The notes: generated by a model not told the origin, from the letters alone. DNA of 64,000 bases from a virus (IMGVR_UViG_3300032285_000709:10856-74855); one strand, 5' to 3'. Shown: positions 50,977 to 56,566, counted from the first letter of the stretch. A program made the numbers and translations.

Positions 50977-51348
50977 ATGAAACTATACGAATTTTTTAGC
51001 CATCTCAATATCAACTCTGATAAGTCGCAAGAAAAGACCGCCGACGAAAAATATGAAATGACTCTCGAAGAAAAAGAGCAATTTAAAAATGAGTTATTCT
51101 TTTATATTCTAGATCACGACGATATACATCGTAAGCATTTTCATGATATAGCAGAACACATTACAGACGAATCCAAACCTAGTGTGTGGATGCCAATTGT
51201 TAACAAAGGCTGTATGGAATTCCACGACGCTAATAAAATACTACAACATCCTCGAGATATGTTCGACAAACAGATGCGCGAAGAACTATGCAACATGTTA
51301 GACGATCACTATCGTAAAGATATCAAGAAAGGCGAATACCGTCCATGA
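50977..51348 (+). CDS. putative head-internal protein (MKLYEFF leader)
   Basis: capsid-targeting-like N-terminus. Confidence 0.6.
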   Translation: MKLYEFFSHLNINSDKSQEKTADEKYEMTLEEKEQFKNELFFYILDHDDIHRKHFHDIAEHITDESKPSVWMPIVNKGCMEFHDANKILQHPRDMFDKQMREELCNMLDDHYRKDIKKGEYRP

Positions 51349-54300
51349 ATTTACTAGAGTTGTTTTCTAGACCACGCCCCTTATTAGAAGGTGGTAACTT
51401 AGAATTAGATAACCCTAATGATCCATCCGCACCTTATCAGGCAGACGAGATTGATCTTAAGGTACATAATCGCACCTTTATGGTTGGGTTATTAGATAAA
51501 CTGTTACACGATATCAACGTTGCATTTTATAAGAAAAATAAAAAACCATTGTGGAATCCACAGTTGTTACAATCAAAAGAGTTCTTAGGCGGAAGCAGTT
51601 TACATTTCTTTAATACCAAAGGTATTAGCGATAAAGAATTTGCTAAACATAAACCGAAAGTTGGAGATATTGATACACAATGTAACAAAGAACTCGAGCC
51701 AGCGGTTGAGCAATTTTTAACAATGTACGATCACAAACAAATAGGTGATACAACATTATTAGGATTCAGTAGAGGAAGCGAACAATTTAATGCTCTATTC
51801 CAATTTCAAGATCCTCCCATTAAGATACAAATAGACTTTGAGTTTGGAAAGTATGACGAAAAGACAGACATGCCAGATGAGTGGTATCGTTTCAGCCATA
51901 GTTCAGAATGGAATGATATACAAGCAGGCATCAAAGGTGTATTCCACAAATACATATATCGTGCATTAACTTCTGCGCACGGTAGCATTAAACATCAAGT
52001 CGATGTTAAGAAAACAAAAACAAATATTAAACCAAATATTGCTGATAATGATTTGTCATTTGCAGTAGCAAGCGGACAAGGCGGTGGTCTAAGCCACAAG
52101 TACGAGCCATATATTCACACAGATCCAGAAACAGGTCAAAAGAAAACTCACGATCAAGGAGTTCCTTATAAGAGACTGATTCCGTCCGGTGAAAGAAAAT
52201 ACATTCAAAAACTAGATCAACAATTCTTTTTCTTTTTTGGTGCAAAGCCCGAGGGCAATGATAGCCAACTACAAAAAAGTTTCTTAGGTACATTAGAGTT
52301 AATCAACAAATATATCAAAGACGAATCGGCTAAAGAAAATGTCTTTAGAGCATTTTTAACATTATGTTTCGAACCTGGTGGGCAAATGATTACTAAGAAC
52401 GATCCAGAGCGAGATCAAGAGATCAAATTTGCGGCTATTGATAACTTTATACAAAAATGTAAACTTAAGAATCTAAGACCCGAAGCTATAAAGATGGGTA
52501 AAGAATACATAGACGATTTTAAAGAAGTCCAAGATTATAAAGCAAAGAATCCTAACGAAAAACAACCACGTGCCGCTCTAAAGCGTATGAAGGCAGGCCT
52601 AAACGAAGCCGAAGTAAAAGCACAACTACGTAAGGGCATGCCTCACTTGCATGATTTAAAGGCACCTGATTTTTTGGACCTACTAGATGAGATCCACGAC
52701 GGTAATGGTAAGTTTAAACTAGAAAATATTCCACTAAATGTTAAAGTAGACGGCTTCGGCGGGCGCTTTGGTAAGAATGCCGAAGGTAAACCTTTCATGG
52801 GTACAAGTCGTACTGAACCTCGTTATCAAGCAAGTTTTGTAGACTATCATCAAAAGAAAGGCACAACGGATCCAGAGATTCTAGGTCGTGCTCAAATGTT
52901 TGATGACTTGTTTAACGAAATGATGAAGGCTATTGAATTAGTTGATAGTAAACTAGGTCCAGACTTTTTAGTAAACAAACAAGTAACTTGCGAAGTATTG
53001 TTCTTGCCATTTGCTACAGAAACTCCAGAAGGTAAATTAAAGTTTGTAGGCATTCATTACGACAAACTTCCAAAAGGTGTACAGTTAGCTCTAGTACCTT
53101 TCCATGCTGTAGAAGCAGACAGCGGAGAAGCTGTTCAAGATACTAAATTTATTGATAAGTTGCTAGGTGTAGGGAACCAAGGTAGTGTTATGTTTATTAA
53201 CAATAGACTAACACAAAAAGAAGGCCTCGATGTAACTGAGATTATTAATCCATTAGATAACATCGAAGAACTTAAATCAATAGTGGCAGGTACAGCAGGT
53301 AAGCGTGATCGTGCAAGCCTGCAACTTAGAAAAGAAATAGAAGAAAAACTACAACCTATCAAAGACAAATTAGAACAGGCTATTATTAAAGATCCTAATA
53401 TCATCGGCAAAGACATGTTAGGTAAAGACTACGAAGGTATCGTTATTAACAGTCGCCTCGGTCCTATTAAAGTAACAAGCCAGGAACAACGAAATGTTAT
53501 CCAAGCAAAGCAAGATGCTAAGGCAAATGCTCGCACAGAACGCCCACGCGGTGAGAATAAAACAGCCGTAGTTGCTATTGGTAGCTTTGTTGGACACATA
53601 GGTCACGAACAATTATTCGATTATACAATCAAGAAGGCCGCACAAGTAGGCGGCGATCCGTATTTGTTTATCGGAAATGCTGAAGGCAAAGACGATCCTA
53701 TACCACCAGCTGTTAAAGTACAGACATGGCATAAAATGTATCCACAATATGCTAACAACATTAGTACTGTTACACAACAGGGCGGAACATTAATGCAGAA
53801 AATCAAGCACGAGTTGATTAATCCTCTACCAGGCAAACCACCACGCTACGATAATATTATTATTATGGTCGGTGAGGATCAGGCTAAAATGCCTATTGCA
53901 AATGCATTGATGAAATCAGTTAATAAATTTGAAGGGTACGAGCATGTTAAGGTAAGTTTAGAAGCTACTCCGCGAGGAACAGGTATGAGCTTTACTAAGC
54001 TACGTAACATCCTAAAAGATCCCAATGCTACACCAGAGCAACAATATGCTGTATGGGCCAAAGGGTTTGATGTTAAAAAATTAGGCAAGGAATGGATTAT
54101 GAGATTAATGGAATTAACTCGCAAAGGTATGGGCATAACTGCTCCTGCTAAGAAAGGCATACACCCAGATGCCGCACAACCAGTTAAGTTGCCCAAGCAA
54201 AAAGCGCCAGCAGAAACAATGGCCGGGGTCGGCATGCAAGATAATCCAGAACGCAATGCTGTTGCATTTGAAGAAAAGCAAAGATTAGATCCTAAGTGCT

Positions 54301-54936: not shown

Positions 54937-55796
54937 CAAACGAAGGTAAGAGAGGATTCAAGGTCCGTCATAAACAAAAGGTTGCTTCAATAGAACCAAC
55001 TAAGCCACGTAACTTTGTTGCTAAGAACGCTATCAATACCGGTGCTGGCGCACACAAAGATAAAAAGAAAGCTATGAAACAAGGCGACACTAAACATAAA
55101 AAAGCCTATGCAGAAGGTTTGGAAGAAAAATATCAAGCTCAATTAAACGAATTTCTTCCAGTAATTGCCGCAGGGGCCGGTGAACTTGCCGCAGGTGCCG
55201 CCGCAAGGTATGGCGCAGGTAAAGCAGGACAATGGGTCGCAGGACAGGCAGGTAAGGCGGCTGTAAATCATATCGGAAATAAGGTTAAAGATAAAATGAG
55301 TAATACCCCAGACGAAATTAACGAAGGTGATAGCGAAGGCGCAATGGCTAAACAACAATTGATCACTGCGGCTAAATTGGCTATCAAATTAGCAGAACAA
55401 ATGGATTCTGAAACACAACTAGATGCATGGGTACAAACTAAGATTAGTTTAGCATCTGATTACATTGAAACAGTATTTGACTTTTTAGTCCACGGTGAAC
55501 AGGACGTTGACAAAGATGTAGAGACCGACGAAGAAGTTAATCCTGGAATTACGCATCAACATCGTCACGGTACTTTAAAACATACTGCAACTGCAATGGA
55601 AGGCGCTAAAGTCGATCGTCAAGCCATGCATATAACTAAAAGCATGATGAAAGCACATCCTGGTATGAGTCGAGACGAAGCGGAAGGTGCGGCTTGGGCG
55701 CATATTAAACATCCAAAGAAAAAGAAAAAGAAAGTTAAAGAAGATGCTTATCAAATCTATCTCGATGTAATGTTAGAGAAGTCGTTAAAAAAATGA
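54933..55796 (+). CDS. putative modular head-internal polyprotein
   Basis: alternating basic/acidic modules separated by LNE, INE, VKE. Confidence 0.6.
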   Translation: MTNEGKRGFKVRHKQKVASIEPTKPRNFVAKNAINTGAGAHKDKKKAMKQGDTKHKKAYAEGLEEKYQAQLNEFLPVIAAGAGELAAGAAARYGAGKAGQWVAGQAGKAAVNHIGNKVKDKMSNTPDEINEGDSEGAMAKQQLITAAKLAIKLAEQMDSETQLDAWVQTKISLASDYIETVFDFLVHGEQDVDKDVETDEEVNPGITHQHRHGTLKHTATAMEGAKVDRQAMHITKSMMKAHPGMSRDEAEGAAWAHIKHPKKKKKKVKEDAYQIYLDVMLEKSLKK

Positions 55797-56566
55797 GAAT
55801 CCTAGAAGTTGTAACTGAAGACGTTGTTCTTAAACTTGAAAAAGGTCTTAAGAAGTTACCTAGCCATAGTTACGATTCTATAGATAAGCTCATGCAGAAA
55901 ATTTGTAAGGATGCAGATATTTCTGGACAAAAATTGCATGACATGTTTGTTGATAAACATAACTTAACACCCGACACTTGGATTAAAAAGCAAGTAGACG
56001 AAGATTGGCAAAAGGTAAACAAGCACGATAAAACAGACGGTCTAAGTCAAAAGGCTGTAAATGCATATCGTAGAGAAAATCCAGGTAGTAAATTAAAAAC
56101 TGCCGTAACTACTAAGCCTAGTAAGTTAAAGAAGGGTTCTAAATCTGCCAAACGTCGAGCAAGTTTTTGTGCCAGAATGAGTGGCATGAAAAAACATCGT
56201 GCCGGAGCAAAAACCAAACGAGATCCAGATAGCCCAATCAATAAAGCCTTACGTCGATGGAATTGTGAAAGCATCGAAGAAATGCAAGAATTGATCATGT
56301 TAGGTGAACAGTATATTTCCGAAGCGGCTAATAGGGCACAGCAGGCCGCTATTGCTATAGCCAAAAAAGAAAAGCAAGCAGATGAAAATTTTGCAGATGG
56401 TAAAAATCCAGGGCGTAAAGGTTTAGCCAAGCGTAGCGGTGTTAATACCAAAGCAAGTGTGAGCAGTTTACGCAATACAGCCAAGCATTCAAGTGGTGAA
56501 AAGGCCAGAATGGCACATTGGTTAGCCAATATGAAATCTGGTAAAGCTAAAGCAAACAAAAAATAA
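55793..56566 (+). CDS. putative modular head-internal polyprotein (MRILEVVTE leader)
   Basis: modules DWQKVN..FCARM..RRWNC, AAN.AQQAAIAI, NFADGK. Confidence 0.65.
   Translation: MRILEVVTEDVVLKLEKGLKKLPSHSYDSIDKLMQKICKDADISGQKLHDMFVDKHNLTPDTWIKKQVDEDWQKVNKHDKTDGLSQKAVNAYRRENPGSKLKTAVTTKPSKLKKGSKSAKRRASFCARMSGMKKHRAGAKTKRDPDSPINKALRRWNCESIEEMQELIMLGEQYISEAANRAQQAAIAIAKKEKQADENFADGKNPGRKGLAKRSGVNTKASVSSLRNTAKHSSGEKARMAHWLANMKSGKAKANKK

Follow-up and report, generated by a model that had tools for sequence, protein, structure and literature searches.

The operon analyzed here occupies positions 50528–56566 (plus strand) of a 64,000-nucleotide stretch of viral DNA (IMGVR_UViG_3300032285_000709:10856-74855), which is referred to below as the window and from whose first letter all positions are counted. 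It is probably a late operon of a T4-superfamily jumbo phage that encodes head-internal cargo proteins, i.e. a counterpart of the hypervariable internal-protein locus of T-even phages. The assignment as cargo is well supported by comparison with related loci and by two virion proteomes of homologs; targeting to the head, cleavage and injection are what we infer by analogy with T4. The window belongs to an IMG/VR viral contig of 74.9 kb that was judged 21% complete, so that the whole genome is probably about 350 kb in size.

Six open reading frames (ORFs) lie within 50977–56566, all on the plus strand, and each junction between neighbours is a 4-nt ATGA overlap, i.e. the genes are translationally coupled. 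They encode a 123-aa acidic protein with the leader MKLYEFF (50977..51348), a 1026-aa protein that starts with MNLLELF..PLLE followed by GGN (51345..54425), a conserved 98-aa protein that starts with MKQYKITS, has no leader and is present in nearly all related loci (54422..54718), a 73-aa protein in which the leader MKISELLE is followed by a basic SATAGATS module (54715..54936; isoelectric point 10.8), a 287-aa modular protein without a leader (54933..55796), and a 257-aa modular protein with the leader MRILEVVTE (55793..56566). The start of the 73-aa ORF sits within a longer ORF and is backed by homologs and by the ATGA overlap with the preceding stop codon.

Shared leaders and the joint ahead of GGN

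In agreement with an earlier note made from the sequence of the window, which had pointed to a common start M-[KRN]-[IL]-x-E-[FLV] in four ORFs, the pattern ^M[KRN][ILV].E[FLVI] matches these four operon ORFs only, among the 137 plus-strand ATG-initiated ORFs (at least 40 aa) of the whole contig; four adjacent matches are far above the chance expectation of ~0.1, obtained from rough residue frequencies. The leader of the T4 internal proteins is MKTYQEFIAE. The first 10 residues of IPIII suffice for packaging in T4, with residues 4 and 7 involved in targeting and residues 8 and 10 in processing (PMC9026906). The leaders of the operon and its relatives preserve the aromatic or aliphatic positions and the terminal [IL]-x-E, and MKLYEFF of the 123-aa protein has Tyr4 and Phe7 as in the T4 leader.

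Using the 1026-aa protein as the query, we collected 19 related IMG/VR loci (57–93% identity), and all 19 retain leaders on otherwise unrelated proteins, with variants such as MRAKEFITE, MRLRELLEG, MKIKELLEN, MRAIEFIIE, MKATEFIIE and MRFKEIIDES; the orthologs of the 123-aa protein in all loci start with MRLRELLE/G, MRISELLE/N, MKLYEFF or similar sequences. Among ORFs of realistic size in the 143-kb and 93-kb contigs of relatives, leader starts are confined to the orthologous cluster, its flank or the vicinity of head genes. The leaders are conserved as protein, with differing lengths, across these 57–93% identical loci as well as among homologs with <50% identity. Judging from sequence, the N-termini thus behave like T4-type capsid-targeting leaders that end in a gp21-type site, as the earlier note had proposed, and the joint described next is the strongest test in support of this view.

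The 15-residue leader of the 1026-aa protein, MNLLELFSRPRPLLE (51345..51389, plus strand), ends in L-L-E right before an invariant GGN. A HMMER search for homologs of the first domain over 1.84 billion representative sequences yielded 556 homologs, and the top 150 of these, mutually no more than 50% identical, were used for joint statistics. In this set, 42 proteins start with M-GGN, 94 carry a leader of 2–26 residues, and in 9 the GGN is internal, behind another domain. Among leadered or internal homologs, the residue immediately before GGN (P1) is Glu in 98 of 103 cases; the other five are Met, probably alternative starts. The P3 residue is Leu in 63, Ile in 31, Val in 3, Met in 3 and Asp in 1 (i.e. 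L/I/V/M in 100 of 101), and P2 is free; by these residues, the signature of the joint is that of a T4 gp21 site. Many of the leaders are 10-mers, e.g. MKKFKQFLKE followed by GGN. Campylobacter phage CP220 gp100 starts with MKLSELMFILE and then GGN, and the homologs of Vibrio phage pv27 and Xanthomonas phage BUDD start with M-GGN. Given that M-GGN and xE-GGN homologs both occur and that G16, G17 and N18 are invariant in the alignment, the mature protein seems to need a GGN N-terminus, which would arise either through removal of Met or through cleavage following [IL]-x-E. The AlphaFold model (predicted local distance difference test score 93.3) shows leader residues 6–14 as disordered.

In two relatives, L017 and L023, a module of ~120 aa containing HExxH stands ahead of the domain, and the joint is still ISE/GGN or IME/GGN. 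Zincin-like HExxH modules (LRTLAHELHHAKQ) are fused ahead of the nucleotidyltransferase or of DUF6321 chains in L017:5614-11271, L023:5593-9858, P0010 and P0097.

Homologs were detected in CsCl-purified virions in two independent studies. Gene 1-56 (44,446 Da) of Campylobacter phage vB_CcoM-IBB_35 is among 38 virion proteins, with 17.0% coverage (PMC3322345 Table S2); it is a homolog of the nucleotidyltransferase domain that starts with MKLSELMFILEGGN, i.e. with the leader MKLSELMFILE and then GGN. In Synechococcus phage S-SCSM1, ORF91 and ORF29 are marked 'virion protein' in the record; according to the publication, the virion proteins of this phage were identified by mass spectrometry, and NMNAT-like proteins recur in cyanophage virions (PMC9602691). 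ORF91 (L041:1820-3049) is NMNAT-like, starts with MKSFLQFLKE and is a homolog of the adenylyltransferase part, the third domain, of the 1026-aa protein (E 6e-7, with 25% identity in an alignment of 236 aa); ORF29 is a 517-aa chain of modules ending in DUF6321, and the gene after it, ORF30 (L123:4216-4536), starts with MKTFKQFMSE. Both of these leaders are near-canonical T4 leaders and go unmentioned in the consulted sections of the publication (PMC9602691).

Outside the operon, a Fe/Mn superoxide dismutase (21273..21830, plus strand; identified by Pfam) starts with the T4-like, 10-residue leader MYNFIKTIAE followed by G, and its relatives (n = 79) keep MYNFI[KR]..[ILVF]xE followed by G with a leader length of 10–12 aa, which makes it a candidate for a further cargo protein.

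Internal 'fossil' leaders were observed in the C-terminal extensions of the large protein in L010, L013, L018 and L019 (..NxWIRK-MRAKEFLA.., MRASEFTR, MRAYQFIR); as these remnants show, the large protein has acquired a leader-tagged gene from downstream by in-frame fusion, with the leader motif retained.

The three-part enzyme and the small modules

The earlier note had described the longer ORFs as strings of unrelated short modules. This description does not fit the 1026-aa protein, which is instead a conserved enzyme of three linked parts, a nucleotidyltransferase, a ligase and a HIGH adenylyltransferase, whose counterparts in other phages are encoded by genes near one another. Xanthomonas phage BUDD has an individual gene for each part, ordered as here, and an unrelated gene separates the first from the second; in Vibrio phage pv27, ligase and transferase are fused and lie near the nucleotidyltransferase gene; and cyanophage S-H9-1 has genes for a KWDG ligase-like protein, a cytidylyltransferase and a CWKGY-module protein close together. 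Elsewhere, the parts bear leaders of their own, namely MKKFKQFLKE/GGN, MKSFKTFIKE (ligase, P0345) and MKSFLQFLKE (S-SCSM1 ORF91).

Residues 16–421 (51390..52607, plus strand) are, according to the structural model, a nucleotidyltransferase of the Pol-beta superfamily with a fold closest to family-X DNA polymerases. G83, S84, D108, D110 and D164 are invariant in 87 sequences (the GS, DxD, D signature). The top Foldseek matches of the model are the family-X DNA polymerases Pol beta, lambda and mu (probability 1.0), and VIA-align gave Z of 7–8 to TUT7, Trf4, Pol beta, mu, lambda and PolX of African swine fever virus, with up to 195 aligned residues (164 of 176 for the latter PolX); structural TM-scores were low (0.26–0.41). 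ESM Atlas assigned the domain to NTP_transf_2.

The following region (52608..54149, plus strand) encodes ATP-dependent polynucleotide ligase-like and HIGH adenylyl/cytidylyltransferase-like domains. In the ligase part (aa 422 to ~720), motifs I, III, IV and V are conserved as KVDG, TCEVLF, YEGIVIN and PIKVT, with K467, D469 and G470 invariant, and the fold matches archaeal RNA ligases as well as DNA ligases. The transferase part (aa 735–930) contains HxGH within GSFVGHIGH, matches phrog_3041 'cytidyltransferase' (E 2e-13), falls below the cut-off in Pfam, and has a fold that matches PPAT (TM 0.6–0.7), NMNAT and FAD synthetase; a sequence-profile search of the Protein Data Bank with the large protein gave a weak HxGH match only.

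The sole conserved internal site of the 1026-aa protein is L-N-E at aa 419–421 (52599..52607, plus strand), a candidate cut site at the joint of nucleotidyltransferase and ligase. This joint reads [LIV]-x-E-A-[ED] in 11 of 12 orthologs, and in all 25 distant nucleotidyltransferase-ligase fusions [ILVMF]xE occurs within 22 aa ahead of the ligase motif. No [ILVM]xE was found between the ligase and adenylyltransferase domains, and inside folded domains the motif occurs 1.1 times per 100 aa compared to 1.59 genome-wide. Beyond the transferase, an insert varies from 0 to ~900 aa among orthologs and is followed by a conserved C-terminal helix. In the 1026-aa protein, the insert region includes a small basic Cys module, KQRLDPKCWKGY..NNCVPVSE (aa 978–1010; 54276..54374, plus strand), which is preceded by AFEE and elsewhere stands directly behind leaders (MRAKELLTE followed by AIKQRLDAKCW).

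The C-terminal amphipathic helix EVEDLIAGYIKLLESK (54375..54422, plus strand) is a recurring end-piece: similar helices (..E-W/V-E......I.KLLE.K) occur at 54375-54422 and 55746-55793 and in P0039, L015, L016, L017 and L023. T4 Alt is processed at its C-terminus too, and the helix may be a second, C-terminal signal. Another recurring end module was seen in the L012–L024 cluster, where several neighbouring proteins share the tail PVAKPKRNKYG[IV].

In the modular 257-aa protein, the order is leader, a 61-aa module, DUF6321 (aa 71–158; 56003-56266, plus strand), a linker helix, a 21-aa AAN module (aa 178–198; 56324-56386, plus strand) and the NFADGK module; in the 287-aa protein, it is the DUF7230-like KPRNFVAKNA module, a Gly/Ala-rich cassette (aa 74–131), the DSEGxMAKQQL module and the C-terminal helix. 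Pfam names one of the small modules, DUF6321, and gives a weak match to DUF7230; a literature search found no paper mentioning either family. The DUF6321 module has a net charge of +17 and is 86% identical to that of Prochlorococcus phage P-TIM68, a phage with an otherwise distantly related genome, which suggests that individual modules have recently been exchanged between phages that differ widely. A search with DUF6321 matched at least 7978 proteins of 141–450 aa. Among the best 120 matches (67–100% identical, mostly 85–97%), DWQKVN comes right after a 9-residue leader (MRAKEFINE) or after unrelated sequence ending in VDE, LSE, ILE, VAE, IDE, MSE or similar triplets.

For twelve types of modules, [ILVMF]xE lies just ahead of the module in 152 of the 178 distinct upstream contexts, with individual counts of 63/65 for DUF6321, 17/18 for WSxKYK, 12/12 for IKKGxKDSNG, 19/22 for NFADGK, 12/13 for QRLDPKCW and 9/10 for AAN. 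The expectation that module borders in homologs fall at xxE sites was borne out for the set as a whole, at a frequency far above chance, and it failed for two modules, KPRNFVAKNA and CPxCGMC. The distance from Glu to the core of the QRLDPKCW module varies (E/K, E/D, E/AIK, E/SVK), which argues for the Glu being part of the joint and not of that module. The explanation that the Glu is just the first residue of DUF6321 was rejected, given that it accounts neither for the hydrophobic P3 nor for the variable spacer of QRLDPKCW. In a separate test, 37% of the BLAST breakpoints fell within −3 to +1 of [ILVM]xE-type sites compared to 11.7% at random positions; this test is noisy, with ~3-fold enrichment, and the test anchored on modules is the cleaner one.

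Seven of the eight Glu junctions named in the earlier note coincide with independently defined borders of modules, cassettes or domains. GLNE/AEV is the conserved nucleotidyltransferase/ligase joint; AFEE/KQRLDPKCW, QVDE/DWQKVN, YISE/AAN and QADE/NFADGK are module starts; and QLNE/F and EINE/GDSEG are the edges of a swapped cassette in the 287-aa protein. The eighth, KVKE/DAY, precedes a recurring C-terminal helix. The expected shuffling of modules at such junctions was compared with L007 and L008, whose DNA (~88% identity) aligns with the window in the same order throughout, interrupted at exactly three places, and two of these three breaks are bounded by the sites: the 21-residue AAN module, located here between YISE and QADE, is absent in L007 and L008, and the cassette between QLNE and EINE is replaced in both by four other modules located between KINE and DMVE. 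The third break is a deletion inside a module.

Proposed processing, known systems and alternatives

By analogy with T4, the leader, M-[KR]-x-x-E-[FL]-[ILF]-x-E of 8–15 residues, would carry each precursor into the scaffolding core of the prohead, and a gp21-type prohead protease would then cut after [ILVM]-x-Glu, removing the leader and separating modules at like sites. The predicted products of the 1026-aa protein are the nucleotidyltransferase starting at Gly16, a ligase-adenylyltransferase pair released by a cut after Glu421 and, perhaps, the small basic Cys module. From the 73-, 257- and 287-aa proteins, small and mostly basic peptides would be released, DUF6321 among them, to be stored alongside the packaged DNA and to exit together with it when a cell is infected; in the 257-aa protein, the predicted cuts are after Glu9, Glu70, Glu177 and Glu198. 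Many small cut products, as envisaged in the earlier note, are plausible for the latter three proteins, whereas the large enzyme would be cut internally at one joint only. The proteins may act at entry, in repair or modification of nucleic acids, in neutralization of DNA charge, in counter-defence or, as the earlier note had suggested, in host takeover.

A prohead protease of the kind that the earlier note had called for was found in a relative. In the 143-kb contig of L017, which has an orthologous cluster, a gene for a Peptidase_S77 protein (E 2e-26, exceeding the Pfam cut-off) is located beside an acidic scaffold-like gene; a gp21-type protease of the clade is encoded at 36508-36933 of the relative contig G001, and such a protease is present in all five cultured phages with homologs.

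Several observations weigh against this scheme. A search of the window's own 74.9-kb contig for Peptidase_S77 found none, a result that, with the fragment only 21% complete, is uninformative on absence from the genome. Presence of the protease does not predict presence of a leader, as phages BUDD and pv27 have the protease and leaderless homologs. Within the operon, the 98-aa (54422-54718) and 287-aa (54933-55796) ORFs have no leader, and the MKLYEFF leader of the 123-aa protein has no I-x-E at positions 8–10. Among the joints, the KPRNFVAKNA (0/5) and CPxCGMC (5/15) modules break the [ILVMF]xE rule, QADE has Ala at P3, the Glu ahead of DUF6321 could be part of the module itself, and the third break, a deletion in L007 that removes half of the Cys module, ignores the joint. 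The HExxH module of some relatives could be a built-in processing protease acting instead of the prohead protease. Finally, the authors of the IBB_35 study reported no obvious size shifts of virion proteins (PMC3322345); loss of a 1-kDa leader is too small to show as such a shift.

The closest known system is that of the T4 internal proteins. Leaders of the same form (MKTYQEFIAE compared to MRAKEFITE, MKISELLE and, in relatives, MKKFKQFLKE) are found on unrelated, often basic proteins, the leader end is [IL]-x-E, the locus is hypervariable and a gp21-type protease occurs in the clade; in addition, T4 Alt is an example of an enzyme that serves as cargo. Unlike in T4, several cargo genes here are chains of small modules with the same joint site, shuffled between phages, and one cargo protein is the three-part nucleic-acid enzyme of 1026 aa; leaders of 9 or 15 residues, rather than 10, are frequent.

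In the giant phages phiKZ (gp175), 201phi2-1 and SPN3US (gp245), many head and ejection proteins are processed behind a Glu within short motifs by a protease distantly related to gp21, with several sites in the propeptides (PMC9026906). Proteolytic maturation of the head after Glu would be shared, whereas the motif is different and the inner-body and ejection proteins are unrelated to the modules described here; in addition, the polymerase of the present clade is of T4 type, and the clade's Peptidase_S77 protease scores above the Pfam cut-off. Polyvalent proteins consist of several domains, and they have been suggested to accompany the DNA and to undergo cleavage into units (Iyer, Burroughs, Anand, de Souza, Aravind 2017; PMC5512222). 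Some homologs of the present proteins likewise contain a zincin-like HExxH domain; however, the processing of polyvalent proteins is proposed to involve a built-in metallopeptidase and not a prohead protease acting at [ILVM]-x-E, and they have no N-terminal targeting leader. None of the polyvalent signature domains (zincin-like metallopeptidase, MuF, ArdC-N, DarB-type and others) was found in the six ORFs, and membership in this class was rejected for the window on this ground; the text of PMC5512222 does not mention cyanophages or Synechococcus. The virion-associated NMNAT/cytidylyltransferase-like proteins of S-SCSM1 (ORF91) and S-CBWM1 are similar in being detected in virions, with ORF91 sharing homology to the third domain and carrying the leader MKSFLQFLKE; ORF91 differs in being a stand-alone protein. 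Its publication discusses ORF91 as a possible NAD enzyme and, in the consulted sections, makes no reference to a targeting leader (PMC9602691). Among the papers searched that refer to the capsid targeting sequence, none is concerned with polyproteins of marine or jumbo phages.

It is unlikely that the leaders alone are functional, such that the multi-module proteins stay intact in the head and the [ILVM]-x-E joints are traces of the fusion of once leader-tagged genes, left at the borders as leader ends or as flexible acidic linkers. Fusion is easily conceived, as loss of one stop codon at an ATGA overlap joins two genes, leader remnants (..WIRKMRAKEFLA..) lie inside the large protein of L010, L013, L018 and L019, and many modules are found elsewhere directly behind a leader. 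However, mere relics would be expected to erode, and instead Glu at P1 and a hydrophobic residue at P3 persist in the 152 of 178 contexts, whereas P2 and the flanks vary, and the same residues are kept in the 25 of 25 distant nucleotidyltransferase-ligase fusions; furthermore, most joints retain the x-E end only and not the rest of a leader.

Slightly less probable again is that the proteins are packaged and processed as proposed but that the internal cuts are made by another protease, either the built-in HExxH domain or the ClpA-type machinery encoded upstream. The large protein of L017 and L023 begins with an HExxH module, such modules are also present in P0010 and P0097, autoprocessing by such zincin-like domains has been proposed for polyvalent proteins (PMC5512222), and immediately 5' of the operon there is a clpA-like gene, accompanied by dnaJ and def, that is syntenic in related loci. 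Nevertheless, the operon of the window has no HExxH module, ClpA unfolds proteins without being site-specific, ClpP was not observed here, and the signature at the joints, [ILVM]-x-E with any residue at P2, corresponds to that of T4 gp21 and is identical to the leader ends.

The DNA that encodes the conserved leaders of T-even phages may promote recombination in the internal-protein locus. That the shared N-terminus is here nothing but a recombination or expression signal in DNA, assisting cassette exchange or the start of translation, with the proteins acting in the infected cell and not as virion cargo, appears very improbable: leaderless homologs do occur in phages that possess the protease, and a perfect early-type promoter at 46189 might read into the region, but the leaders are conserved as protein, differ in length and without exception stop precisely where the mature GGN begins, purified virions contain homologs, and the operon follows a virion-protein-like gene.

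Returning to packaged and processed cargo, a more general possibility, advanced tentatively, is that aquatic T4-superfamily phages, from cyanophages to jumbo phages, share a combinatorial cargo system, in which one joint would serve as both protease and recombination site and, behind a universal leader, dozens of tiny basic modules and whole enzymes would be cut in the head and injected; in the present case, the cargo would comprise a complete fill-and-seal repair set for nucleic acids (family-X-like polymerase, ligase and adenylyltransferase) and superoxide dismutase, which would reach the cell ahead of all phage gene expression and thus be ready in advance against host nucleases or damage to the entering genome. 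If so, the T4 internal-protein principle is a widespread, highly modular delivery system rather than a curiosity of T-even phages, the recurrence of NMNAT-like transferases in virion proteomes of marine phages is explained, a role is assigned to several abundant modules and domains of unknown function, and attention is drawn to proteins active at the very onset of infection, within seconds. Exact neo-N-termini would then be predicted that can be checked in existing mass-spectrometry data, and the rules for leaders and joints could be used to annotate packaged cargo in metagenomic phage genomes.

Phage affiliation, promoters and flanking genes

The family-B DNA polymerase encoded at 57296-59965 shares 51% identity with its counterpart in Sinorhizobium jumbo phage Phosso and 42–44% with those of E. 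coli and Agrobacterium T4-superfamily jumbo phages. Megablast of the operon region against 50,697 phage records gave no matches, i.e. no cultured phage among them is similar in DNA, and tblastn with the 287-aa ORF as the query gave none either.

The operon opens with a 148-aa virion-structural-like gene (50528..50974, plus strand), which matches phrog_13657 (E 6e-16) and phrog_14467 'virion structural protein' (E 2e-6) and is also kept upstream of the cluster in related loci. The TAAATA box reported in the earlier note is present at 50503..50508 (plus strand), 25 nt before the ATG at 50528, and is a candidate late-promoter element. The contig contains 27 copies of TAAATA, 18 of which are intergenic and 6 of which lie 25–28 nt upstream of gene starts. 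The canonical T4 late promoter TATAAATA is not enriched in the contig (1 seen vs. 6.9 expected); for lack of enrichment, this full box was dropped as the operon promoter, and the shorter TAAATA box was retained on the basis of its spacing. The downstream end of the operon is marked by a perfect sigma-70-type promoter, TTGACA-17-TATAAT (56574..56602, plus strand).

Directly 5' of the operon, genes for DnaJ-like, peptide deformylase and ClpA-like proteins (46251-49841) follow the perfect sigma-70 promoter at 46189. The upstream position of the ClpA-like gene is retained in L010, L012, L014 and L018, and its product might be an unfoldase or cargo loader. Inside the cargo cluster of many relatives, there is a Dps/ferritin-like gene (FASEFSFYLKAHNFHWN) without a leader (e.g. 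L009:10140-10577, L013:4284-4727, L016:9894-10331), which the operon of the window does not have. Farther upstream in the window, a 3129-aa ORF (23479-32868) without a Pfam match has a TAAATA box 25 nt ahead of its start and probably encodes a giant virion protein.

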